Virus record (IMG/VR): IMGVR_UViG_2681813321_000026
Location: 1-24,073 of that record
Reading direction: 5' to 3' (one strand)
Source of the DNA: a virus
Taxonomy: Duplodnaviria; Heunggongvirae; Uroviricota; Caudoviricetes
DNA: 24,073 nt
The notes under the pieces are model-generated. The model was given only the letters and a program-made list of their open reading frames with translations, had not been told where the DNA came from and ran no database searches. Below, one piece after another: positions 784-20,618 of the stretch. A program made the translations under genes and the position numbers. Every line of letters starts with the position of its first letter. The stretch's first letter is position 1.

Positions 784-1237
784 CGAATTTCTCCCGTGTA
801 CAGGAACAGAGTTAAAAAGCCGGAACCGGAATCAAATTACAGGATGGCCATCTGCCAGTGGCTGGTCGTAAAAAAAAGGCCACGCCATGCGCAGCCGGAA
901 ATAAAGGGATAACGATGATAGTTTGAGAAAAACAGAAACAACACTTTTGTGGCAAAGCATGGTGCCGGGTGCCTCCCGGTGAATTCAGTATCAGCACCTG
1001 AATCCGCGATTATCCCATATACCTGGTTGCTGATCGCCCCTCCGCACAGGGGGATTCACCATGCCAGTTTCTTTTAACAAACTCCCCGCAAACCAGACAA
1101 CAGTCAACCGCCTGAATTGTGAGGTATTTAAAAATTTCAACGGGTAACTGATACCCTGCTAATCGCCTGATGCTTTCTTTTTCAGCAACGGGAAAGCAAC
1201 AACCACCACACCCACCAGCCGCCCATTTACCACAAAT

Positions 1238-5520: not shown

Positions 5521-5793
5521 TGTGCAGCTCCCGTGCTGATGAGATAATAATTTTGTGATGTGGTTTTCATGGATTCCCCCTCACATGGCTGGTGGCCTCC
5601 CCAAAGGCTGCCAGCCTCCCTTCTGATTCAGCTCCTCTGAAAAATCACTCTTCCAGGAAGAACCCTTTTCGTTTCTCAGCGCCTGAGCGCTTTGTACTAC
5701 CTTGCTGATACGGGCGTTTTTTTAAATTGCGCCCTTAAGACAGTGATCTACTTAACCAATGGATCTCTCCTGTTGGAAAAGACCCTATTCCTG

Positions 5794-5836
5794 CCCCAAC
5801 ACCCAATCCCCCCTTACCCCCCTTACCCTCTTCCCC
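5794..5836 (-). other. C-rich (plus) / G-rich (minus) tract with six runs of 3-6 G: potential G-quadruplex motif on the minus strand
   Basis: Plus strand ccccaacacccaatccccccttaccccccttaccctcttcccc; includes tandem ccccccTTA units. Lies in the 413-bp non-coding gap between the 102-aa ORF and the helicase gene. Confidence 0.4.
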
Positions 5837-5933
5837 ATAAAAACGTACTACTTCCCTAGTACACATGAGGAGTTGGGTCAGTTGGTTGCCAACCTGAACA
5901 GGCACCTTTAAGCCTGCTTCTGTTCGGGTACCT

Positions 5934-6242
5934 TTAAACCCGAAACAGTGAGGAGCGCGATTGCGATCCAGCCAGGGGAGGTTCGGCTGTATACCCCTGT
6001 AAAGCTCTGCCCTGATTTCTTACAAACAGGCGGAGCCTTGTGTTTGCTTCGTGCCTTGCTCTGTTCTCCTTGCGGAATGAAACAGGCTCAGCGTCAAAAG
6101 TGATTTCGTATACCTCCGCATATTTCAGGGCAACCTTCCGTCTCAGTGACGGAGGCAGCCCCTGTAACTGCTGCTGAATCCACTCTTCGTCTGCCTGGCA
6201 GTACCTAGATGGCATCTCTGTCTGAACGTAATTCTGGGACAT
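5934..6242 (-). CDS. Hypothetical protein (102 aa) in the cII/replication-initiator position
   Basis: ATG at 6242 with strong SD (GGGAGGTGA); overlaps the 3' end of the cro-like gene by 38 nt in another frame. No motif recognised. Confidence 0.55.
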   Translation of the reverse strand: MSQNYVQTEMPSRYCQADEEWIQQQLQGLPPSLRRKVALKYAEVYEITFDAEPVSFRKENRARHEANTRLRLFVRNQGRALQGYTAEPPLAGSQSRSSLFRV

Positions 6243-6492
6243 ACAAGCCCTTCACCTCCCCCGTGCGCGCTAAGCTTGGATGTGGAAAAAGCTCTGATAG
6301 GTCTGGCCGAAATTCATACGCTTGGATCTTTCCGTCGACAGCTGCAACCAATAACGGCACAAATTCTGGTGAAATCTTGTTCTTGCAGTTCAACCAATCG
6401 CAGACTGTTGACTGGGCCTTTCCGCATCGCTTGGCTAAGGCTTGCTGACTTCCAAGAATCTCAATAGCTTTCTCTATGGCTTTATGTTTCAT
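6205..6492 (-). CDS. Cro-like HTH regulator (Cro/CI-type, YdaS-like), 95 aa
   Basis: Start set to ATG at 6492 (MKHKAIEKAIEILGSQQALAKRCGKAQSTVCDW, HTH) with SD AGGAGA 7 nt upstream; ORF track start at 6543 is an upstream in-frame extension. Divergent from cI. Confidence 0.75.
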   Translation of the reverse strand: MKHKAIEKAIEILGSQQALAKRCGKAQSTVCDWLNCKNKISPEFVPLLVAAVDGKIQAYEFRPDLSELFPHPSLARTGEVKGLYVPELRSDRDAI

Positions 6493-6493
6493 A

Positions 6494-6578
6494 ATCGCAT
6501 CTCCTATTGAACGCATAATAACAACAGGAAAAGCGATATTCAACGTTAAACATAGAATATTTATCGGAAAGCCGATAA
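6494..6578. promoter_or_regulatory. OR-like divergent promoter/operator region between cro-like and cI genes
   Basis: Palindromic 14-mers ATCGCatctCCtAT (6494-6507) and ATCGGaaagCCGAT (6563-6576). Candidate minus-strand cro promoter TTGAAT-N17-TATTAT (-35 at 6543..6538, -10 at 6520..6515). Candidate plus-strand -10 TAGAAT at 6553-6558 with poor -35 (PRM-like). Confidence 0.5.
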
Positions 6579-6611
6579 ACTAGCCAAGATAGAGAGGGGA
6601 GGAAAATCGCA

Positions 6612-7304
6612 ATGACATTTTCAGAACGACTTGATTTAGCTATGCGCAACGCAAAATTTACGCAAGGTAGGCTGGCCAAAGAAGTGGGTATGGCTCAGTC
6701 CAGTGTTAATCAACTACTTAACAAAGCCAACGGTTCCAGAAAAACAGTCGAAATAGCAAAAGTTTTGGGCGTTAACCCGGAATGGCTCGCATCGGGTGTT
6801 GGCCCAATGGAAATCGTGACCTCTGCAGACTCACACCAAATACGTAACATTTCTGAAGATTGGGTTACTGATTCGTATGTCGTGGATGTTTTAGACATCA
6901 GATATAGTTGCGGACCTGGTAGTTATAACTCTGATTTTCCTGATATTGTCAGATCTATAGCGATAGAACCAGGATACGCATCAAGAGTTTTTGGCGGCAG
7001 ACCAGCATCAGCAATCAAAGCAATAAACGCCCACGGCGACAGTATGAAAGGCACAATAGACCCTGAAGACTTGGTATTTGTAGATGTATCAGTTCGCACA
7101 TTTAATGGTGATGGTATATACGCCTTTACATACTCTGGAACATCGCACATCAAAAGACTTCAAAAAATCAAAGATACTCTAACGGTGATATCTGACAACC
7201 CAGCTTACAAGGATTGGGCTATCGAACCGGAAGACTTCGAACAACTTCACATTGACGGAAAAGTAATTGTCAGTTGGCCTATGACACTACACCGTTTTGC
7301 ATAA
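6612..7304 (+). CDS. cI: CI-type prophage repressor (N-terminal XRE HTH, C-terminal S24 LexA-like peptidase domain)
   Basis: 230 aa; HTH QGRLAKEVGMAQSSVNQL; S24 catalytic motifs GDSM and downstream Lys; SD GGAGG upstream of ATG. Confidence 0.9.
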   Translation: MTFSERLDLAMRNAKFTQGRLAKEVGMAQSSVNQLLNKANGSRKTVEIAKVLGVNPEWLASGVGPMEIVTSADSHQIRNISEDWVTDSYVVDVLDIRYSCGPGSYNSDFPDIVRSIAIEPGYASRVFGGRPASAIKAINAHGDSMKGTIDPEDLVFVDVSVRTFNGDGIYAFTYSGTSHIKRLQKIKDTLTVISDNPAYKDWAIEPEDFEQLHIDGKVIVSWPMTLHRFA

Positions 7305-7322
7305 GCAAAAATCATTTAACCC

Positions 7323-7348
7323 GCCCACTCTTAAGTGGGCTTTTTTTT
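7323..7348 (+). terminator. Rho-independent terminator after cI
   Basis: Perfect 7-bp stem gcccact/agtgggc with 4-nt loop ctta followed by T8. Confidence 0.8.
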
Positions 7349-7356
7349 GGGAAAAA

Positions 7357-7398
7357 ATCGATAAACCGATTGACAGGTGAAATCGGTAAACCTATTAT
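7357..7398 (+). promoter_or_regulatory. PL-like promoter with two operator sites
   Basis: TTGACA (7370-7375), 17-nt spacer, TATTAT (7393-7398). Operator-like 14-mers ATCGAtaaaCCGAT (7357-7370, overlapping -35) and ATCGGtaaaCCtAT (7382-7395, overlapping spacer/-10), same family as the OR sites. Confidence 0.7.
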
Positions 7399-7447
7399 CT
7401 TGACATAGGTATCGAACTCACCAAAGCAATTATAGAGGATGAGAAAA

Positions 7448-7858
7448 ATGTCATCGTATATGGGATTACCAACAAATCAGCACGATGCTCTTGAGAATAT
7501 TCAGCTCTTAGTAGGGACTGGTGCACTACTGTATAGCAGCAATAACCCTGAGTTAATTGAACTTGCCAGCTCCATCCTGGCTGTAACTCAAAAATATAGC
7601 CTCACCGCGTCACGTTTATGCAAACAAAATTTAGCTATTAATTCCCAGAATCGGATTCGCACCCAACGCGAAACCTGCGGCTTAACAACCGCCGAACTCG
7701 CTAGGCTGCTCGATCTCGATGAAGAAATTATCATCCAGTGGGAGAGCGGAGAGTACGAACCAACCATCAGCATGCTTATCCCTCTGGCTAATGTTCTTGG
7801 CTGTGATCCAATGTTGTTATTGACTGATGCTTATAAACAAAATCAGGAGGAAGCATAA
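7448..7858 (+). CDS. Hypothetical protein with C-terminal XRE-family HTH (first gene of PL operon)
   Basis: Start set to ATG 7448 (SD GAGGA 8 nt upstream); track start 7439 has no spacing to the SD. C-terminal HTH LTTAELARLLDLDEEIIIQWESGEYEPTISMLIPLANVLG. Confidence 0.6.
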   Translation: MSSYMGLPTNQHDALENIQLLVGTGALLYSSNNPELIELASSILAVTQKYSLTASRLCKQNLAINSQNRIRTQRETCGLTTAELARLLDLDEEIIIQWESGEYEPTISMLIPLANVLGCDPMLLLTDAYKQNQEEA

Positions 7859-7859
7859 G

Positions 7860-8051
7860 ATGAAAATGTTCAAAGGCCTTACCAACGAACCGGAGACAAC
7901 TTTTCATCACATTGCCGTACTGCTTGAAGCGGGGTTAATCATTTCGGCTTCCGGTGATGAAGAATGTGATGAACTTTCGGATGATATCTTTTTACTGGCA
8001 CAACAATACGCCAGAAGCGCATGCGATGCATTTAAGGAGCAAAGAACATGA
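7860..8051 (+). CDS. Small acidic hypothetical protein (63 aa)
   Basis: ATG 7860 preceded by AGGAGG (9-nt spacing); track ORF 7827 is an in-frame upstream extension overlapping the previous gene. Confidence 0.55.
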   Translation: MKMFKGLTNEPETTFHHIAVLLEAGLIISASGDEECDELSDDIFLLAQQYARSACDAFKEQRT

Positions 8052-8239
8052 AAACTCCATTAAATATTCTTGAGGAAGTGGCAGCACAAATAAAAGAGAA
8101 TACATCAATGCTTGAATTTATATTTAAGAATTCGCCCGACTCAGGAGAGACAGACGATTATTTATGTTGCCTCATTCGCTCCATGAATAAAACCTGTGAA
8201 ATGGCTTACGCGTATATCGACACACTGCGCAACGAATAA
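8048..8239 (+). CDS. Small acidic hypothetical protein (63 aa)
   Basis: ATG overlaps stop of previous gene (ATGA coupling). Confidence 0.55.
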   Translation: MKTPLNILEEVAAQIKENTSMLEFIFKNSPDSGETDDYLCCLIRSMNKTCEMAYAYIDTLRNE

Positions 8240-8423
8240 AGAAAACTCAATAAACAATCACCCATAAAAACATAACGGTCTCTGGTCGGGAATTTCCACA
8301 ACCTGAAAATGGTGGTGATGCATGAAAAACAGAAGTGCTTATAAAACCGCATTATTAATGGCTAATGCAGGATACTGGTCAGTTGCAATACTGTTTCTCA
8401 GGAAAGCATACGGGAAATAACAA

Positions 8424-8783
8424 ATGACACATGAACCCATTAATACATATCGTCGCCGTATAGCTGTTGCGGCACTCCATCGAATAAAACGTAAAACAGG
8501 TGGTAATCTGCTTATTGTTGACCTTCCTGATGGGAACATTACGACCATAGAAATAACTGAACAGTTTATAAACCAGTTGCTGTTACGCTTCGAAGGTATT
8601 ACCCGTGGTGAATTGGGCCGGGTGGAGGGTGAAACCGAAATCCACACTGCATACCAGAATGCTATCGGGATTAATCAACATACTGAATACCTGACTGAAA
8701 CCGGAAAGTTAATTATAGACAACCTTTTTCAAGAGATTATTGATTACGCGAAAGAAAAATATATCAGCGGAGGAATTAACTGA
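8424..8783 (+). CDS. Hypothetical protein (119 aa)
   Basis: ORF with ATG start; stop overlaps start of next gene. No motif recognised. Confidence 0.5.
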   Translation: MTHEPINTYRRRIAVAALHRIKRKTGGNLLIVDLPDGNITTIEITEQFINQLLLRFEGITRGELGRVEGETEIHTAYQNAIGINQHTEYLTETGKLIIDNLFQEIIDYAKEKYISGGIN

Positions 8784-8998
8784 TGGCTAATTTATCCCCT
8801 GTATCTGTTGTGCACGAAAAAGTGCAGATCGTTATGACAATTGAAAATGGCCAAGTCACAGGTGTCTGCAAAGTCCGCGATGGCGAGCTGATTGCCAGCA
8901 TGGATACATTCATACGGCTGGCAGAAAGAGCGGGGTATCAGATAACAGCACCTGCTCAGGAGGAAACCGGTGGCATTAACAGCAACACGCATTCCTGA
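8783..8998 (+). CDS. Hypothetical protein (71 aa)
   Basis: ATG 8783 with GGAGGA 8 nt upstream, overlapping stop of previous gene. Confidence 0.55.
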   Translation: MANLSPVSVVHEKVQIVMTIENGQVTGVCKVRDGELIASMDTFIRLAERAGYQITAPAQEETGGINSNTHS

Positions 8999-9184
8999 GC
9001 GGATCCACCGGCAGGCATTGCAGGTCCTGTTGTTGTACCGATGCCGACGGATATTTCCGCATCGGATACAGCGCACCGGATATCTCAGTCTGAAGGTTAA
9101 CCGTCGCTGGCGGCTGTTATCGAAAGACGACGGCCGGAACTGGGAAGTAATGAGTCATGAACGTTATTCGGGAGAAATAAAGAA

Positions 9185-9577
9185 ATGATCGACAACCGCA
9201 CCGCCAGCACCATTGACCAGGCATTACAGAAACATGATACACCCGTCGGCCCGTTATTTTTTGTAACACGCCACGGAAGAACAAAAAAATGCCTCACCCG
9301 AAAAACGGCAATTCGTTACCTGGCATTCTTTATGACCACCCGCGCTTTTGAACGTTCAGGATTCCGACAACGCTATCCTGACAAGCGTTTTATCTTCAAC
9401 AGGAATGAGATATGGAAACGTGGAGAATCAACCACAGAGTATACCCGCGCACACCAGCGAACAATCAGACGACTGCGCAGACTCATCGCCAGGAAACAGT
9501 ATACAGAAAAATGGTTCAGAAAATATGACACATGGAGCGCCGGATATTACGAACTGATGGCAACAAAACCATTCTGA
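9185..9577 (+). CDS. Hypothetical basic protein (130 aa, Arg/Lys-rich C-terminus)
   Basis: ATG 9185 with GGGAGA upstream. No motif recognised. Confidence 0.5.
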   Translation: MIDNRTASTIDQALQKHDTPVGPLFFVTRHGRTKKCLTRKTAIRYLAFFMTTRAFERSGFRQRYPDKRFIFNRNEIWKRGESTTEYTRAHQRTIRRLRRLIARKQYTEKWFRKYDTWSAGYYELMATKPF

Positions 9578-9637
9578 CGTAAACGAAATTAACCATGACG
9601 CAATTAAATAAGGCAAGCCGAATACATCAGGAGGACC

Positions 9638-9826
9638 ATGAACATTTATTTCAGAATAGTTATATCACTGGCAATTATCACATGTATTTACGGATTAATC
9701 GTTCCGGCCCTCATATCAATGAAGGATACGGTAGCAGTGATTTCTGGCTTTGCTCTGGCGTGTCTGACCCCGCCCTGCATTTATGCCATTTATAAGGGTC
9801 TTTCTTTTTCTAAGGATAAAAGATGA
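9638..9826 (+). CDS. Small membrane protein (62 aa, two predicted TM helices)
   Basis: AGGAGGA upstream of ATG; two hydrophobic stretches; stop overlaps start of SPFH gene (ATGA). Confidence 0.55.
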   Translation: MNIYFRIVISLAIITCIYGLIVPALISMKDTVAVISGFALACLTPPCIYAIYKGLSFSKDKR

Positions 9827-10137
9827 AAAAATTACTTTTTGCTTTAGCCCTTGTTCTGCCGACCATTGGCCTTGTCGGTTGCGATCGCGTTGAGCCTGGT
9901 AATGTGGGCATCAAAGTAAACAAACTGGGCGACGATAAAGGCGTCGGTGAAGTGGTCGGTGTTGGGCGCTACTGGACGGGATGGAACACTGAGGTTTACA
10001 TCTTCCCGACCTTTAAGCAGATGAAGACCTACGATGATCCATTCAGTTTCCAGATGAGTGACGGTACAACCATCGGCTATCACATCGGCGTGGCCTACAA
10101 AGTTGATCCATCCAAAGTTACCACAGTCTTTCAGACC

Positions 10138-10167
<30 letters not shown>
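9823..10167 (+). pseudogene. Truncated copy of SPFH/band-7 lipoprotein gene (first 105 codons, then unrelated sequence after repeat boundary at 10137)
   Basis: Identical to the first 105 codons of the 275-aa gene at 19791-20618, then diverges and terminates after 9 foreign codons. Confidence 0.75.
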
Positions 10168-13550
<3,383 letters not shown>

Positions 13551-13576
<26 letters not shown>

Positions 13577-14096
13577 TCAGCAACCCCGGTATCAGTTCAT
13601 CCAGCGCGGCTGCTTTGTTCATGGCTTTGATGATATCCCGTTTCAGGAAATCAACATGTCGGTTTTCCAGTTCCGGAAAACGCCGCTGCACCGACAGGGG
13701 GAGCCCGTCGAGAATACTGGCAATTTCACCTGCGATCCGCGACAACACGAAAGTACAGAATGCGGTTTCCACCACTTCAGCGGAGTCTCTGGCATTCTTC
13801 AGTTCCTGTGCGTCGGCCTGCGCACGCGTAAGTCGATGGCGTTCGTACTCAATAGTTCCTGGCTGGAGATCTGCCTCGCTGGCCTGCCGCAGTTCTTCAA
13901 CCTCCCGGCGCAGCTTTTCGTTCTCAATTTCAGCATCCCTTTCGGCATACCATTTTATGACGGCGGCAGAGTCATAAAGCACCTCATTACCCTTGCCACC
14001 GCCTCGCAGAACGGGCATTCCCTGTTCCTGCCAGTTCTGAATGGTACGGATACTCGCACCGAAAATGTCAGCCAGCTGCTTTTTGTTGACTTCCAT
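13551..14096 (-). CDS. nu1: Terminase small subunit (lambda Nu1, 181 aa)
   Basis: Translation MEVNKKQLADIFGASIRTIQNWQEQGMPVLRGGGKGNEVLYDSAAVIKWYAERDAE... recognised as lambda Nu1; overlaps A start as in lambda. Confidence 0.95.
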
Positions 14097-14283
14097 TGTT
14101 CATTCCACGGCCAAAAACAGAGAAAGGAAACGACAAAGGCCCAAAAGTTCGTTTTCAGCACCTGTCGTTTCCTTTCTTTTCAGGGGGTATTTTAAATAAA
14201 AACATTAAGTTACGACGAAGAAGAACGGAAACGCCTTAAACCGGAAAATTTTCATAAATAGCGAAAACCCGCGAGGTCGCCGC

Positions 14284-14295
14284 CCCGTAGCCTGC
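14284..14295 (-). other. cosN cohesive-end site (12-nt GGGCGGCGACCT on minus strand); cosB lies between here and Nu1
   Basis: Plus strand aggtcgccgccc at 14284-14295 is the reverse complement of the lambda left cohesive end; the following 190 bp toward Nu1 matches the lambda left end from memory with a few substitutions. Confidence 0.85.
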
Positions 14296-14522
14296 CGGAT
14301 CGCCGGAAAGGACCCAATAAATGATAATAATTATCATTTATATAAATACCATCACACATCCCACGTACACCATAAAACCACGACAAATAATCAATTTTGT
14401 CCAAGTCATGCATTAATTGATCTGTGTCAACTTAACGTAAAGACATCTTAAGACAATACAAATCAGCAGCACTGAACACGGAAAAACACAATGTCATCAA
14501 AAAATAAAGCTTCCCAAACCAG

Positions 14523-14663
14523 ATGATTAATCAAATCCATATTGCCCTTGAACGTAAGGGATCGGGTAATTTTTCGGCATGGGTTATTGAAGCCTGCAGG
14601 AGAAGGCTGGCAACAGATGCAAAGCACCTGCGCCCGGCCAGCATGAAAAATAACGAGAAATGA
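14523..14663 (+). CDS. Small hypothetical protein (46 aa) in the cos-proximal right-end region
   Basis: ORF MINQIHIALERKGSGNFSAWVIEACRRRL...; resembles from memory the last small ORF before cos in lambda. An upstream ATG at 14491 is out of frame. Below track size cutoff. Confidence 0.3.
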   Translation: MINQIHIALERKGSGNFSAWVIEACRRRLATDAKHLRPASMKNNEK

Positions 14664-14795
14664 ACGTTCGGTTACAGGAACCGGTAGCTACTGTCTTCTA
14701 ACAATATTTCATCTTCATATCCGGCGAAACAAGACTTTACCCTGCAGGGATGTACTGAATAGCAACAGAGTGATAATTAACTTCTGATAAAATAA

Positions 14796-15122
14796 TCAGG
14801 GTGCTGAAGGACTAAAGATAAATGTTTTCTTCACGCCTTTACGCGGCTTGTCCTTCTCAAATCGCCATTTTGCCATCGCCTTTACAACCTGCTCATCAAA
14901 CAGATGGTGCGGCTCTGAACGGATAAACTCAATTCGGGTGACAGTACCATCAGCACCAATATCAAACTTCACATCAACCCGTCCCTTTATATAATTTGCC
15001 GCGGCATAGGCCGGATATTGTGGTAATGCCTTAACCAACTGTCGAGGCATATCTGTTTTATGTTGCGTACAGCCCATAACCAAAGAAGACAACAAAATAA
15101 TTAACGGAAGATTTCTTTTCAT
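14796..15122 (-). CDS. Lipoprotein consisting of a TonB C-terminal-like domain (about 108 aa)
   Basis: Signal peptide MKRNLPLIILLSSLVMGC with lipobox-like VMGC; mature region PQYPAYAAANYIKGRVDVKFDIGADGTVTRIEFIRSEPHHLFDEQVVKAMAKWRFEKDKP aligns closely with E. coli TonB C-terminal domain (PQYPARAQALRIEGQVKVKFDV...AMRRWRYEPGKP) from memory. Alternative upstream ATG at 15137 has no SD. Confidence 0.75.
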   Translation of the reverse strand: MKRNLPLIILLSSLVMGCTQHKTDMPRQLVKALPQYPAYAAANYIKGRVDVKFDIGADGTVTRIEFIRSEPHHLFDEQVVKAMAKWRFEKDKPRKGVKKTFIFSPSAP

Positions 15123-15138
15123 TTTTATTCCCGGCATA

Positions 15139-15158
15139 GATAAGAATAAGTCTTATTC
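15139..15158. promoter_or_regulatory. AT-rich perfect palindrome (GAATAAG-T-CTTATTC preceded by GATAA) overlapping the putative promoter of the TonB-like gene
   Basis: 7-1-7 perfect inverted repeat at 15144-15158; overlaps a minus-strand TAGAAT -10-like hexamer; partial resemblance to Fur-box GATAAT hexamers. Confidence 0.3.
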
Positions 15159-15761
15159 TAACAATGCAGCCCTGTCGGTCATCAATCCTCTGCTTAATGG
15201 CAATGACAATTATCCGACTTAAATCACAAATCAGACACATGACATAACAGAGTTTGCGAGGTAACACATCGTCCGGTTTCTTCCACCATCGCACCGGACC
15301 AGCGACCATGAGGGGACAACGCCGCGCTCCGTTTACGCGGTAAACCCCGGTGTGTATCGTTTTTGATTATCCCCGCACACTCTCGCAGAGGAGTCTCCCT
15401 GTCGGGCTGCGGTCTCTGTTAATGCAGGAATACGGCGACAATACCGCGCATGGATAATAAGGTCGCTCAACACACTGGCTGTAATTCAGCGGATACCATT
15501 CGGCATTTATCAGTATTCATCACACACTCAACGGTGAATTCTTCATGCGTGGCATTCACTTCATATGTTCGTGAATAACATTCAGTGCATTTACCTCTGA
15601 ACACCTCTTCAATCACTCTTCCAGGAAGAACCCTTTTCGTTTCTCAGCGCCTGAGCGCTTTGTACTACCTTGCTGATACGGGCGTTTTTTTAAATTGCGC
15701 CCTTAAGACAGTGATCTACTTAACCAATGGATCTCTCCTGTTGGAAAAGACCCTATTCCTG

Positions 15762-15804
15762 CCCCAACACCCAATCCCCCCTTACCCCCCTTACCCTCTT
15801 CCCC
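15762..15804 (-). other. Second copy of the C-rich/G-rich potential G-quadruplex tract
   Basis: Identical to 5794-5836. Confidence 0.4.
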
Positions 15805-15901
15805 ATAAAAACGTACTACTTCCCTAGTACACATGAGGAGTTGGGTCAGTTGGTTGCCAACCTGAACAGGCACCTTTAAGCCTGCTTCTGTTCGGGTACC
15901 T

Positions 15902-16210
15902 TTAAACCCGAAACAGTGAGGAGCGCGATTGCGATCCAGCCAGGGGAGGTTCGGCTGTATACCCCTGTAAAGCTCTGCCCTGATTTCTTACAAACAGGCG
16001 GAGCCTTGTGTTTGCTTCGTGCCTTGCTCTGTTCTCCTTGCGGAATGAAACAGGCTCAGCGTCAAAAGTGATTTCGTATACCTCCGCATATTTCAGGGCA
16101 ACCTTCCGTCTCAGTGACGGAGGCAGCCCCTGTAACTGCTGCTGAATCCACTCTTCGTCTGCCTGGCAGTACCTAGATGGCATCTCTGTCTGAACGTAAT
16201 TCTGGGACAT
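15902..16210 (-). CDS. Hypothetical protein (102 aa), copy 2
   Basis: Identical to 5934-6242. Confidence 0.55.
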   Translation of the reverse strand: MSQNYVQTEMPSRYCQADEEWIQQQLQGLPPSLRRKVALKYAEVYEITFDAEPVSFRKENRARHEANTRLRLFVRNQGRALQGYTAEPPLAGSQSRSSLFRV

Positions 16211-16460
16211 ACAAGCCCTTCACCTCCCCCGTGCGCGCTAAGCTTGGATGTGGAAAAAGCTCTGATAGGTCTGGCCGAAATTCATACGCTTGGATCTTTC
16301 CGTCGACAGCTGCAACCAATAACGGCACAAATTCTGGTGAAATCTTGTTCTTGCAGTTCAACCAATCGCAGACTGTTGACTGGGCCTTTCCGCATCGCTT
16401 GGCTAAGGCTTGCTGACTTCCAAGAATCTCAATAGCTTTCTCTATGGCTTTATGTTTCAT
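16173..16460 (-). CDS. Cro-like HTH regulator, copy 2
   Basis: Identical to 6205-6492. Confidence 0.75.
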   Translation of the reverse strand: MKHKAIEKAIEILGSQQALAKRCGKAQSTVCDWLNCKNKISPEFVPLLVAAVDGKIQAYEFRPDLSELFPHPSLARTGEVKGLYVPELRSDRDAI

Positions 16461-16461
16461 A

Positions 16462-16546
16462 ATCGCATCTCCTATTGAACGCATAATAACAACAGGAAAA
16501 GCGATATTCAACGTTAAACATAGAATATTTATCGGAAAGCCGATAA
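16462..16546. promoter_or_regulatory. OR-like promoter/operator region, copy 2
   Basis: Identical to 6494-6578. Confidence 0.5.
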
Positions 16547-16579
16547 ACTAGCCAAGATAGAGAGGGGAGGAAAATCGCA

Positions 16580-17272
16580 ATGACATTTTCAGAACGACTT
16601 GATTTAGCTATGCGCAACGCAAAATTTACGCAAGGTAGGCTGGCCAAAGAAGTGGGTATGGCTCAGTCCAGTGTTAATCAACTACTTAACAAAGCCAACG
16701 GTTCCAGAAAAACAGTCGAAATAGCAAAAGTTTTGGGCGTTAACCCGGAATGGCTCGCATCGGGTGTTGGCCCAATGGAAATCGTGACCTCTGCAGACTC
16801 ACACCAAATACGTAACATTTCTGAAGATTGGGTTACTGATTCGTATGTCGTGGATGTTTTAGACATCAGATATAGTTGCGGACCTGGTAGTTATAACTCT
16901 GATTTTCCTGATATTGTCAGATCTATAGCGATAGAACCAGGATACGCATCAAGAGTTTTTGGCGGCAGACCAGCATCAGCAATCAAAGCAATAAACGCCC
17001 ACGGCGACAGTATGAAAGGCACAATAGACCCTGAAGACTTGGTATTTGTAGATGTATCAGTTCGCACATTTAATGGTGATGGTATATACGCCTTTACATA
17101 CTCTGGAACATCGCACATCAAAAGACTTCAAAAAATCAAAGATACTCTAACGGTGATATCTGACAACCCAGCTTACAAGGATTGGGCTATCGAACCGGAA
17201 GACTTCGAACAACTTCACATTGACGGAAAAGTAATTGTCAGTTGGCCTATGACACTACACCGTTTTGCATAA
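16580..17272 (+). CDS. cI: CI-type prophage repressor, copy 2
   Basis: Identical to 6612-7304. Confidence 0.9.
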   Translation: MTFSERLDLAMRNAKFTQGRLAKEVGMAQSSVNQLLNKANGSRKTVEIAKVLGVNPEWLASGVGPMEIVTSADSHQIRNISEDWVTDSYVVDVLDIRYSCGPGSYNSDFPDIVRSIAIEPGYASRVFGGRPASAIKAINAHGDSMKGTIDPEDLVFVDVSVRTFNGDGIYAFTYSGTSHIKRLQKIKDTLTVISDNPAYKDWAIEPEDFEQLHIDGKVIVSWPMTLHRFA

Positions 17273-17290
17273 GCAAAAATCATTTAACCC

Positions 17291-17316
17291 GCCCACTCTT
17301 AAGTGGGCTTTTTTTT
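17291..17316 (+). terminator. Rho-independent terminator after cI, copy 2
   Basis: Identical to 7323-7348. Confidence 0.8.
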
Positions 17317-17324
17317 GGGAAAAA

Positions 17325-17366
17325 ATCGATAAACCGATTGACAGGTGAAATCGGTAAACCTATTAT
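17325..17366 (+). promoter_or_regulatory. PL-like promoter with operators, copy 2
   Basis: Identical to 7357-7398. Confidence 0.7.
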
Positions 17367-17415
17367 CTTGACATAGGTATCGAACTCACCAAAGCAATTA
17401 TAGAGGATGAGAAAA

Positions 17416-17826
17416 ATGTCATCGTATATGGGATTACCAACAAATCAGCACGATGCTCTTGAGAATATTCAGCTCTTAGTAGGGACTGGTGCACTACTGT
17501 ATAGCAGCAATAACCCTGAGTTAATTGAACTTGCCAGCTCCATCCTGGCTGTAACTCAAAAATATAGCCTCACCGCGTCACGTTTATGCAAACAAAATTT
17601 AGCTATTAATTCCCAGAATCGGATTCGCACCCAACGCGAAACCTGCGGCTTAACAACCGCCGAACTCGCTAGGCTGCTCGATCTCGATGAAGAAATTATC
17701 ATCCAGTGGGAGAGCGGAGAGTACGAACCAACCATCAGCATGCTTATCCCTCTGGCTAATGTTCTTGGCTGTGATCCAATGTTGTTATTGACTGATGCTT
17801 ATAAACAAAATCAGGAGGAAGCATAA
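17416..17826 (+). CDS. Hypothetical protein with C-terminal XRE HTH, copy 2
   Basis: Identical to 7448-7858. Confidence 0.6.
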   Translation: MSSYMGLPTNQHDALENIQLLVGTGALLYSSNNPELIELASSILAVTQKYSLTASRLCKQNLAINSQNRIRTQRETCGLTTAELARLLDLDEEIIIQWESGEYEPTISMLIPLANVLGCDPMLLLTDAYKQNQEEA

Positions 17827-17827
17827 G

Positions 17828-18019
17828 ATGAAAATGTTCAAAGGCCTTACCAACGAACCGGAGACAACTTTTCATCACATTGCCGTACTGCTTGAAGCGG
17901 GGTTAATCATTTCGGCTTCCGGTGATGAAGAATGTGATGAACTTTCGGATGATATCTTTTTACTGGCACAACAATACGCCAGAAGCGCATGCGATGCATT
18001 TAAGGAGCAAAGAACATGA
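17828..18019 (+). CDS. Small acidic hypothetical protein (63 aa), copy 2
   Basis: Identical to 7860-8051. Confidence 0.55.
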   Translation: MKMFKGLTNEPETTFHHIAVLLEAGLIISASGDEECDELSDDIFLLAQQYARSACDAFKEQRT

Positions 18020-18207
18020 AAACTCCATTAAATATTCTTGAGGAAGTGGCAGCACAAATAAAAGAGAATACATCAATGCTTGAATTTATATTTAAGAATT
18101 CGCCCGACTCAGGAGAGACAGACGATTATTTATGTTGCCTCATTCGCTCCATGAATAAAACCTGTGAAATGGCTTACGCGTATATCGACACACTGCGCAA
18201 CGAATAA
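18016..18207 (+). CDS. Small acidic hypothetical protein (63 aa), copy 2
   Basis: Identical to 8048-8239. Confidence 0.55.
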   Translation: MKTPLNILEEVAAQIKENTSMLEFIFKNSPDSGETDDYLCCLIRSMNKTCEMAYAYIDTLRNE

Positions 18208-18391
18208 AGAAAACTCAATAAACAATCACCCATAAAAACATAACGGTCTCTGGTCGGGAATTTCCACAACCTGAAAATGGTGGTGATGCATGAAAAACAG
18301 AAGTGCTTATAAAACCGCATTATTAATGGCTAATGCAGGATACTGGTCAGTTGCAATACTGTTTCTCAGGAAAGCATACGGGAAATAACAA

Positions 18392-18751
18392 ATGACACAT
18401 GAACCCATTAATACATATCGTCGCCGTATAGCTGTTGCGGCACTCCATCGAATAAAACGTAAAACAGGTGGTAATCTGCTTATTGTTGACCTTCCTGATG
18501 GGAACATTACGACCATAGAAATAACTGAACAGTTTATAAACCAGTTGCTGTTACGCTTCGAAGGTATTACCCGTGGTGAATTGGGCCGGGTGGAGGGTGA
18601 AACCGAAATCCACACTGCATACCAGAATGCTATCGGGATTAATCAACATACTGAATACCTGACTGAAACCGGAAAGTTAATTATAGACAACCTTTTTCAA
18701 GAGATTATTGATTACGCGAAAGAAAAATATATCAGCGGAGGAATTAACTGA
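18392..18751 (+). CDS. Hypothetical protein (119 aa), copy 2
   Basis: Identical to 8424-8783. Confidence 0.5.
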   Translation: MTHEPINTYRRRIAVAALHRIKRKTGGNLLIVDLPDGNITTIEITEQFINQLLLRFEGITRGELGRVEGETEIHTAYQNAIGINQHTEYLTETGKLIIDNLFQEIIDYAKEKYISGGIN

Positions 18752-18966
18752 TGGCTAATTTATCCCCTGTATCTGTTGTGCACGAAAAAGTGCAGATCGT
18801 TATGACAATTGAAAATGGCCAAGTCACAGGTGTCTGCAAAGTCCGCGATGGCGAGCTGATTGCCAGCATGGATACATTCATACGGCTGGCAGAAAGAGCG
18901 GGGTATCAGATAACAGCACCTGCTCAGGAGGAAACCGGTGGCATTAACAGCAACACGCATTCCTGA
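18751..18966 (+). CDS. Hypothetical protein (71 aa), copy 2
   Basis: Identical to 8783-8998. Confidence 0.55.
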   Translation: MANLSPVSVVHEKVQIVMTIENGQVTGVCKVRDGELIASMDTFIRLAERAGYQITAPAQEETGGINSNTHS

Positions 18967-19152
18967 GCGGATCCACCGGCAGGCATTGCAGGTCCTGTTG
19001 TTGTACCGATGCCGACGGATATTTCCGCATCGGATACAGCGCACCGGATATCTCAGTCTGAAGGTTAACCGTCGCTGGCGGCTGTTATCGAAAGACGACG
19101 GCCGGAACTGGGAAGTAATGAGTCATGAACGTTATTCGGGAGAAATAAAGAA

Positions 19153-19545
19153 ATGATCGACAACCGCACCGCCAGCACCATTGACCAGGCATTACAGAAA
19201 CATGATACACCCGTCGGCCCGTTATTTTTTGTAACACGCCACGGAAGAACAAAAAAATGCCTCACCCGAAAAACGGCAATTCGTTACCTGGCATTCTTTA
19301 TGACCACCCGCGCTTTTGAACGTTCAGGATTCCGACAACGCTATCCTGACAAGCGTTTTATCTTCAACAGGAATGAGATATGGAAACGTGGAGAATCAAC
19401 CACAGAGTATACCCGCGCACACCAGCGAACAATCAGACGACTGCGCAGACTCATCGCCAGGAAACAGTATACAGAAAAATGGTTCAGAAAATATGACACA
19501 TGGAGCGCCGGATATTACGAACTGATGGCAACAAAACCATTCTGA
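19153..19545 (+). CDS. Hypothetical basic protein (130 aa), copy 2
   Basis: Identical to 9185-9577. Confidence 0.5.
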   Translation: MIDNRTASTIDQALQKHDTPVGPLFFVTRHGRTKKCLTRKTAIRYLAFFMTTRAFERSGFRQRYPDKRFIFNRNEIWKRGESTTEYTRAHQRTIRRLRRLIARKQYTEKWFRKYDTWSAGYYELMATKPF

Positions 19546-19605
19546 CGTAAACGAAATTAACCATGACGCAATTAAATAAGGCAAGCCGAATACATCAGGA
19601 GGACC

Positions 19606-19794
19606 ATGAACATTTATTTCAGAATAGTTATATCACTGGCAATTATCACATGTATTTACGGATTAATCGTTCCGGCCCTCATATCAATGAAGGATACGGT
19701 AGCAGTGATTTCTGGCTTTGCTCTGGCGTGTCTGACCCCGCCCTGCATTTATGCCATTTATAAGGGTCTTTCTTTTTCTAAGGATAAAAGATGA
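19606..19794 (+). CDS. Small two-TM membrane protein (62 aa), copy 2
   Basis: Identical to 9638-9826. Confidence 0.55.
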   Translation: MNIYFRIVISLAIITCIYGLIVPALISMKDTVAVISGFALACLTPPCIYAIYKGLSFSKDKR

Positions 19795-20618
19795 AAAAAT
19801 TACTTTTTGCTTTAGCCCTTGTTCTGCCGACCATTGGCCTTGTCGGTTGCGATCGCGTTGAGCCTGGTAATGTGGGCATCAAAGTAAACAAACTGGGCGA
19901 CGATAAAGGCGTCGGTGAAGTGGTCGGTGTTGGGCGCTACTGGACGGGATGGAACACTGAGGTTTACATCTTCCCGACCTTTAAGCAGATGAAGACCTAC
20001 GATGATCCATTCAGTTTCCAGATGAGTGACGGTACAACCATCGGCTATCACATCGGCGTGGCCTACAAAGTTGATCCATCCAAAGTTACCACAGTCTTTC
20101 AGACCTACCGCAAAGGCGTGGACGACATTACCGACACCGACCTGCGCCAGAAGATAGCCGACGCACTCAACCGACTGGCCAGCAAAATGACCACCGACAA
20201 ATTTATCGACGGCGGCAAGTCTGAGCTGCTGGATGCAGCTCTTAAAGACATTCAGGAAGAAATGACGCCCATCGGTATTCAGGTAATGAGCCTCTCATAT
20301 GTGGGTAAGCCGGAGTACCCACCTACTGTTATCGACAGCATTAATGCCAAAGTCACGGCGAACCAGAAAACCCTGCAACGCGAGCAGGAAGTAAAACAGC
20401 GCGAAGCGGAAGCCAACATGTTGCGCGCGGAAGCTGCCGGACAGGCAGATGCGATTCGCACAAAAGCCCAGGCCGAAGCCGATGCTATTCGTTTACGCGG
20501 TGAAGCTCTGCGCCAGAACCCCGGTGTTATGGAGCTGGAAGCCATCAACAAGTGGAACGGTACACTGCCGCAATACATGACCAGCGGTGCCAACACACCA
20601 TTTATTCAGGTTAAGTAA
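19791..20618 (+). CDS. SPFH/band-7 (HflC/stomatin-like) domain lipoprotein, 275 aa
   Basis: Lipoprotein signal MKKLLFALALVLPTIGLVGC (lipobox LVGC); SPFH-like core and C-terminal Ala/Glu/Gln/Arg-rich coiled-coil segment (REQEVKQREAEANMLRAEAAGQADAIRTKAQAEADAIRLRGEAL) typical of HflC/QmcA-type proteins; SD AAGGA upstream. Confidence 0.8.
   Translation: MKKLLFALALVLPTIGLVGCDRVEPGNVGIKVNKLGDDKGVGEVVGVGRYWTGWNTEVYIFPTFKQMKTYDDPFSFQMSDGTTIGYHIGVAYKVDPSKVTTVFQTYRKGVDDITDTDLRQKIADALNRLASKMTTDKFIDGGKSELLDAALKDIQEEMTPIGIQVMSLSYVGKPEYPPTVIDSINAKVTANQKTLQREQEVKQREAEANMLRAEAAGQADAIRTKAQAEADAIRLRGEALRQNPGVMELEAINKWNGTLPQYMTSGANTPFIQVK

Follow-up and report, generated by a model that had tools for sequence, protein, structure and literature searches.

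A shared 14-bp site family at the immunity switch of an Escherichia coli lambdoid prophage: the predicted CI/Cro operators

The immunity region and its sites

The DNA studied here, called the window throughout, is a stretch of 24,073 nucleotides (IMG/VR record IMGVR_UViG_2681813321_000026) and forms the first 24 kb of the draft contig CYBF01000001.1 (assembly GCA_001285025.1). The window is a lambdoid E. coli prophage. Its immunity region contains a cI repressor gene and a cro-like gene, which are divergent, as in lambdoid switches, and are separated by a gap of 119 bp. An early-left promoter (PL) lies beyond the end of cI. Around the promoters of this region we identified 14-bp two-fold symmetric sites of the pattern ATCGG-N4-CCGAT (Table 1). 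We put at roughly 85% the probability that they are the CI/Cro operator set of the prophage's immunity switch.

Table 1. Features of the immunity region. Sites were scored over 14 bp by counting mismatches to ATCGG-N4-CCGAT. HTH, helix-turn-helix; aa, amino acids.
Feature	Coordinates	Strand	Description
102-aa gene	5934-6242	-	3' of cro; phrog_852 (3.7e-41, no assigned function); annotated by RefSeq in E. coli E110019
cro-like gene	6205-6492	-	95 aa; YdaS-type HTH, helix KAQSTVCDW; phrog_35 transcriptional repressor
Site a (weak candidate)	6494-6507		ATCGCATCTCCTAT, 2 mismatches; over cro ribosome-binding site/leader, about +2 to +15 of PR
PR (cro promoter)	6515-6543	-	TTGAAT-17-TATTAT, upstream TG; promoter scan
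Site b (OR1 equivalent)	6524-6537		ACAGGAAAAGCGAT, 3 mismatches; fills PR spacer
OR2 remnant	6542-6555		AACGTTAAACATAG; aligned to relatives' OR2 (ATCGCnnnnGCGAT)
PRM (cI maintenance promoter), probable	6553-6581	+	TAGAAT-17-TAAACT, weak; by alignment to TTGCCA-17-TACTAT of relative L006
Site c (OR3 equivalent)	6563-6576		ATCGGAAAGCCGAT, perfect palindrome; within PRM spacer
cI repressor gene	6612-7304	+	230 aa; 434-like HTH (helix MAQSSVNQL) and S24 autoprotease domain; phrog_4
Intrinsic terminator	7323-7348	+	GCCCACT-CTTA-AGTGGGC (7-bp stem, 7323-7340), then T8; about -14 kcal/mol
OL2	7357-7370		ATCGATAAACCGAT, 1 mismatch; abuts PL -35, 1 nt in common
PL-like early-left promoter	7370-7398	+	TTGACA (7370-7375)-17-TATTAT (7393-7398), 11/12 matches; kept in close relatives
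OL1	7382-7395		ATCGGTAAACCTAT, 1 mismatch; PL spacer and first 3 nt of -10; 25 bp from OL2
136-aa HTH gene	7448-7858	+	first PL-operon gene; C-terminal XRE-type HTH; phrog_4836, labelled 'CII-like regulator'
Second copy of operator region	16462-17366		offset +9968; all sites, cI (16580-17272) and PL, identical

The C-terminal part of cI matches Peptidase_S24 (Pfam PF00717, E = 7.5e-17, residues 127-219), and helix-turn-helix families were matched as well. For the N-terminal domain the best PDB matches are 2r63 and 1per, which are the DNA-binding domain of the 434 repressor (phmmer, E ~4e-4). Residues 4-62 were aligned to this domain (residues 1-69) with the recognition helices in register. The GDSM (Ser144) and KRL (Lys181) motifs are invariant in the cI alignment, and Cys100-Gly101 is aligned with Ala-Gly of the relatives. 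From what is established for LexA and UmuD, we take Ser144 and Lys181 to be the catalytic residues and Cys100-Gly101 to be the cleavage site. The Cro protein matches the YdaS_toxin family (Pfam PF15943, E = 7.7e-15). Its best PDB matches are XPH1 (5w8y) and 3bd1, a chain that was deposited under the name 'Cro protein'. An AGGAG lies 7 nt 5' of the cro ATG.

The original prediction for this DNA had described four 14-bp sites of one family, two between cro and cI and two at PL, and all four were recovered. It had the PL sites overlapping the -35 element and the spacer/-10 region of a near-consensus promoter. The promoter and the overlap with the spacer/-10 region hold, but the -35 element is merely abutted. 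The terminator reported between cI and PL is present, with 'strong' a fair but generous description of it, and it ends the cI transcript ahead of PL. Relatives have a stem-loop and a T-run at the same position, with another stem sequence. At the right operator, in the cro-cI gap, the claimed set was incomplete: it held site a, whose position stands but which on its own is not clearly above chance, and site c, while the degenerate site b, which is good in close relatives, had been overlooked.

The PR of relative L006 (TTGACA-17-CATAAT) aligns to that of the window. The -10 hexamer of PRM begins at the final T of the OR3-like site in the window and in relatives L004 and L006. The spacer of the probable PRM contains site c, which is therefore OR3-like and is not on the cro promoter. 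Site b is the one best placed for shutting off the cro promoter, and we predict it to be an operator. The OR2 remnant is probably non-functional or merely a half-site. The right operator thus has one strong, one degenerate and one doubtful site plus the decayed OR2, and PL has two sites; a three-plus-three operator set was not found in the window.

Other candidates and readings were rejected. Site c was flagged in a scan as a minus-strand terminator, but its T-tail is poor (ATTCTATGTT) and the two-fold site is conserved at a fixed offset from cI. The right arm of a 25-bp palindrome, ATATTC-N13-GAATAT (6536-6560), is unconserved in UMNF18 and strain 377323_2f, and the palindrome was discarded as an operator. 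A second TTGACA (7400-7405) has no -10 element at 16-18 nt and reads ATGACA or ATGGCA in relatives. The candidate site at 7411-7424 (ATCGAACTCACCAA) has a poor right half. The one at 7453-7466 (ATCGTATATGGGAT) falls within the coding sequence of the first PL gene and differs at core base 13 in relatives.

The whole region is present twice in the window (see below), and raw motif enrichment is inflated because of this. With both copies included, 18 sites with at most two mismatches were observed against 10.3 expected from shuffling; the de-duplicated window has 12. The motif search that the original prediction called for gave three sites with at most one mismatch once one copy was removed, plus their second copies at +9968. 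Three compares with 0.61 expected (P ~0.03), and all three are in the two regulatory intergenic regions. Independently, 28 sites taken only from the relatives were combined into a symmetrised matrix, and the 19.6 kb of non-redundant window were scanned with it. It ranks the sites at 7357, 7382 and 6563 first, second and third, all within about 260 bp of regulatory DNA.

Conservation in related loci

The same-repressor set comprised 24 loci: four E. coli genomes (91-99.8% identity) and 20 IMG/VR loci. No member was seen to lack site a, site c or a 14-mer at the site b position (24/24 for each). The PL pattern could be located in 22 loci, and all of these yielded OL2 and OL1. Most substitutions fall in the inner four bases or change ATCGG to ATAGG. 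Site a is invariant in all 24. Site c is identical in 23; L041 reads ATCGGAATGCCTAT, with core position 12 changed. In the alignment of the four genomes, site c is invariant and both of its flanks are variable. Variation in OL2 is confined to one inner-spacer base, and OL1 variants differ in inner bases or have C3 replaced by A, giving ATAGG. The DNA between OL2 and OL1 and that around site c vary freely. At the position of site b, several of these loci have ATAGGTAAATCGAT, as in UMNF18 and IMG/VR same-repressor relatives, or ATAGGAAAAGCGAT; this position is syntenic with OR1 of all relatives.

In wider comparisons, around 95 related Enterobacterales immunity regions carry same-family 14-mers at fixed positions on PR, PRM and PL. 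One group, which we call the Lys34 group, has the cI recognition helix MAQSSVNKL and the Cro helix KAQSTICDW. It is found in the Klebsiella phage Mulock, in prophages of Citrobacter, Leclercia, Trabulsiella, Erwinia, Scandinavium, Apirhabdus and E. coli, and in about 60 further IMG/VR loci; 71 loci were tabulated. The sites of this group read ATCGC-N4-GCGAT and lie at -45 (60/71), -72 (59/71) and -91 from the cI ATG. The first corresponds to OR3 in the PRM spacer, the second to OR2, which abuts the -35 element of PR, and the third to OR1 in the PR spacer. At PL there are three sites, OL3, OL2 (+21) and OL1 (+25), with the order OL2, TTGAC, OL1, TAT. The window PL matches the OL2-OL1 part of this arrangement exactly. 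Three loci have no PL in the 270 nt that follow cI; in every relative where one was found in this interval, the 25-bp OL2-OL1 spacing is present. Eleven distant relatives were tabulated for site a, and nine of them have a 14-mer of the same pattern at its offset.

Where the recognition helices differ, the sites differ too. Xenorhabdus (L020) has MAQPSVWKL as its cI helix and VKQPSVWAW as its Cro helix; the corresponding helices of phage SaltyDalty (L012) are MAQPTIWRI and VKQPSVSRW. Both loci have ATAGC-N4-GCTAT sites at the same positions. Changes in the sites therefore parallel changes in the recognition helix of each protein, cI and Cro, and the sites track cI and cro rather than the genes downstream of PL. 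Because both proteins and the DNA changed together, cI and Cro are both predicted to read the sites, and this is the strongest argument for it. The operator family that the original prediction proposed to be shared by CI and Cro at the right operator and PL is in agreement with the fixed positions and with this covariation.

Among cI relatives with about 50% N-terminal identity (helix QPTIW), 5+4+5 palindromes also occur in the cro-cI gap. Among these are ATACGCAAGCGTAT in phage 4A7 (L011) and ATAGCAATTGCTAT and ATAGCGGAGGCTAT in SaltyDalty. They suggest a large superfamily of 14-bp operators that would differ at positions 3-5.

Specificity of this lineage

Across the groups, the conserved core of the predicted operator is ATCG-N6-CGAT, and position 5 appears to be lineage-specific. 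It is G in 16 of the 24 distinct half-sites of the Gln34 group, to which the window belongs, and C in 95 of the 134 half-sites of the Lys34 group. In the recognition helix, the two groups differ solely by Gln34 versus Lys34 of cI. This residue is aligned with Gln33 of the 434 repressor, which contacts base pairs 4-5. The association of Gln34 with G5 and Lys34 with C5 is suggestive only, because it comes from a single phylogenetic split.

A tentative and, on balance, rather doubtful extension is that the Gln34/ATCGG group represents a recently derived specificity. It would have split from Lys34/ATCGC by one helix substitution and a C5 to G change, with loss of the middle right-operator site. 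If this is true, nature has switched an immunity here through one residue and one base pair, and the right operator has been reduced to two sites.

Proposed mechanism and alternative explanations

We propose that a cI dimer binds the 14-bp two-fold sites through five contacted base pairs on either side of four inner ones. It would recognize the core ATCG-N6-CGAT around an A/T-rich center, with a preference for G at position 5. At PL, OL2 and OL1 bracket the promoter, and because of this, bound repressor would keep RNA polymerase off the early-left operon. In the cro-cI gap, occupation of site b, and possibly of site a over the cro leader, would shut off cro and the replication operon. Repressor at site c, in the spacer of the weak PRM, would provide negative autoregulation of cI, and Cro would shut off cI from there. 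The YdaS-type Cro very probably reads the same sites, and its helix matches (AQSTV versus AQSSV in cI). Upon DNA damage, RecA-stimulated self-cleavage of cI at Cys100-Gly101 would lead to induction of the prophage. In this scheme, binding itself, the order in which the sites fill, the promoter start points and inducibility are predictions from sequence.

The sequence anatomy, the homology, the positional conservation and the covariation of helices and sites were observed directly, and the case for operators rests on position and conservation. Several points weigh against it. Taken singly, the sites have scores that the best chance matches in 19.6 kb also reach (null maximum ~11 bits). Site a is as frequent as chance predicts. 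Its conservation is inseparable from the constraint on the cro ribosome-binding site, which it overlaps, and it is weakly supported as an operator. Site b is degenerate in the window and ranks only 12 with the matrix. The best palindrome is on the cI promoter and not on the cro promoter. The relatives have an OR2 with a perfect core that abuts the -35 element of PR, whereas in the window it has decayed and the interval is 7 nt shorter. The PRM that we assigned is weak and was not called by a simple promoter scan. The covariation comes from few independent lineages. Lastly, binding by cI and Cro is, for this immunity type, predicted.

The alternative that survives best is that only one of the two proteins binds these sites, for example Cro on the palindromes and cI on a partly different or extended sequence. 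The two helices are similar and not identical (MAQSSVNQL versus KAQSTVCDW), and the difference between the Gln34 and Lys34 groups is in cI only, with the Cro helix nearly unchanged. In CP-933P, two overlapping types of repeats have been reported (PMC8630535). However, in the loci with altered helices, cI and Cro have both changed in parallel with the sites. The same sites are also on all three promoters, as a shared operator set would predict. We regard binding by one protein only as quite unlikely.

Even less probable is that the palindromes are read by another regulator, the 136-aa HTH protein or a host factor, with cI and Cro using other intergenic sequences. The 136-aa gene travels with the immunity region in close relatives, and PHROGs labels it as a regulator. 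However, it is missing downstream of PL in relatives such as Mulock, L006 and L013, in which the operator family is kept at the same positions. Because the sites persist in relatives without this gene, we conclude that its product is not their reader. Other repeats do exist in the right operator, such as the ATATTC palindrome discarded above, but that one is unconserved in two relatives, and it is the cI and Cro helices with which the sites co-vary.

The least probable explanation is that these are chance palindromes plus ordinary promoter conservation and do not act as operators, for although no single site is significant in 19.6 kb and sites with two mismatches are at chance level, the top three matches to a matrix made from relatives cluster in regulatory DNA, the core is conserved while inner and flanking bases vary, the offsets are fixed across genera, and the helices co-vary with the sites.

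Comparison with known switches

The operators of phage 434 are 14 bp long, with 5+5 contacted base pairs, of which 4+4 are conserved, and an inner four that are not contacted (PMC1636474). The layout in the window matches it. The DNA-binding domain is homologous, and the 14-bp two-fold operator has conserved outer 4+4 positions, a variable position 5 and an A/T-rich inner four. In both systems the recognition helices of cI and Cro resemble each other, the two genes diverge, and operators are at the right operator and at PL. The sequence differs, being ATCG..CGAT here and ACAA..TTGT (ACAA-N6-TTGT) in 434, and the immunity is therefore not imm434. Two sites at PL and two or three usable ones at the right operator contrast with three plus three in 434, and Cro is of the YdaS type here.

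The gene order and orientations, the terminator between the cI transcript and PL, and the self-cleaving S24 repressor are as in lambda, whose switch comprises OR1-3, OL1-3, PR, PRM, PL and tIMM. In lambda, paired operators bracket the early promoters. The window likewise has one operator abutting the -35 element and one over the spacer/-10 region at its early promoter, and an OR3-like site on the cI promoter. The lambda operators, by contrast, are 17 bp long and unrelated in sequence, and the first PL gene here encodes an HTH protein rather than N. The middle right-operator site is decayed in the window, and because of this decay lambda-style cooperativity between OR1 and OR2 and activation of PRM from OR2 are doubtful and should not be assumed.

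Footprinting and reporters showed that a YdaS-type protein of CP-933P (E. coli O157:H7) acts as Cro at the right operator and PL (PMC8630535). The window shares with this PaaR2/YdaS/YdaT switch a YdaS-family Cro and a ParE-like gene in the left operon. It differs in having an S24 cI instead of PaaR2 (or a RacR-type repressor), in that no YdaT was detected, and in its operators, which are unrelated to the 18-bp GTTTAGTAA repeats of CP-933P. The comparison with known immunity groups suggested in the original prediction thus gives a 434-like layout with a sequence distinct from those of 434, lambda and CP-933P.

The nearest sequenced phages are the Klebsiella phage Mulock and three sibling Klebsiella phages, whose cI DNA-binding domain is 77% identical. 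Among 50,697 phage records, these four were the only ones to have this domain in common with the window, and none had a cI with more than 52% full-length identity. The Mulock group has the same Cro helix, and its 14-bp sites are placed on PR, PRM and PL as they are in the window. In contrast, its sites read ATCGC and its cI has Lys34 (helix MAQSSVNKL), whereas the window has ATCGG and Gln34. It also has full three-site sets at both operators and cII/O-type neighboring genes. In the literature, we found no experimental study of the Mulock group and no paper characterizing the immunity type of the window, and the six operator 14-mers had no occurrence in the searchable literature. The exact cI protein is nevertheless present on at least 1000 public Escherichia contigs, under generic names only.

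By analogy, the switch appears to work like those of 434 and lambda; it is of an ordinary kind, and the understanding of the mechanism is unchanged. What is gained is an assignment of operator sequences to a common but generically named immunity type, and a tie between this type and a larger operator family across Enterobacterales prophages and four Klebsiella phages. This makes it possible to predict which prophages should be homo-immune and which hetero-immune. In addition, the region is a compact natural system for tests of the evolution of repressor specificity and operator number.

Neighboring genes and the end of cro

The 102-aa gene occupies the place of lambda cII; neither YdaT nor any other significant Pfam family was matched by its product. 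A 38-nt overlap of cro with this gene had been noted in the original prediction and is correct, and RefSeq gives the same overlap in E. coli E110019. Homology with the same-immunity relatives ends near position 6250, and prophages that have only the 102-aa module match 5930-6284, which places the breakpoints within cro at about 6250-6284. Cro has 95 residues in the window and about 81 in same-immunity relatives. EC9682 has a different, unrelated cro, yet an identical 38-nt overlap. Given the breakpoints and the overlap in EC9682, we assign the last ~15-25 codons of cro to the neighboring 102-aa module, across a mosaic joint. The overlap is a by-product of this joint and not a designed coupling.

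The 136-aa HTH gene is in the position of lambda N.

Source contig and duplicated segment

The prophage of E. coli E110019 is ~99.8% identical to the window, apart from an insert at 10138-15610. Its genes are arranged as Q, toprim, helicase, 102-aa gene, cro, cI, HTH gene, ..., SPFH, ..., integrase. In the window, a segment of 4,495 bp is directly duplicated with no mismatches (5643-10137 = 15611-20105), and it takes in the entire immunity region and the early-left genes. The copies flank 5.5 kb of late-region sequence (truncated portal, gpW, large terminase, Nu1, DUF3950 and a TonB_C gene), which is 97.5% identical to the EC9682 prophage. Neither of the junctions 10137/10138 and 15610/15611 is contiguous in 5,426 complete E. 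coli genomes. Because the window starts a draft contig and the junctions are absent from complete genomes, the duplication probably reflects either an artefact of assembly or a rearrangement specific to this strain.

A 'portal' open reading frame (9844-11451, minus strand, 535 aa) is chimeric. It is portal up to about residue 438 (Pfam match, residues 32-400), and its last ~97 codons run antisense through a truncated SPFH gene (9823-10167), over the junction 10137/10138. Just within the left end of the duplicated segment, at 5800-5840, is a C-rich direct repeat (CCCCTTACCCCCCTTACCC), located where ~410 bp of non-coding DNA separate the helicase gene from the 102-aa gene.

A search of the operator region against Rfam gave no match. 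The sole match in the whole window is the STnc100 small RNA (921-1093, minus strand; 108 bits, E = 4.6e-23), which lies between the SASA-esterase and antiterminator Q regions.

The ParE-like gene of the early-left operon (toxin family PF24732; 72 aa, 8970-9188, plus strand) has no recognized antitoxin adjoining it. A 71-aa open reading frame (8783-8998) precedes and overlaps it and has a faint match to an anti-repressor PHROG. The pair is reminiscent of the paaR2-paaA2-parE2 module of CP-933P.

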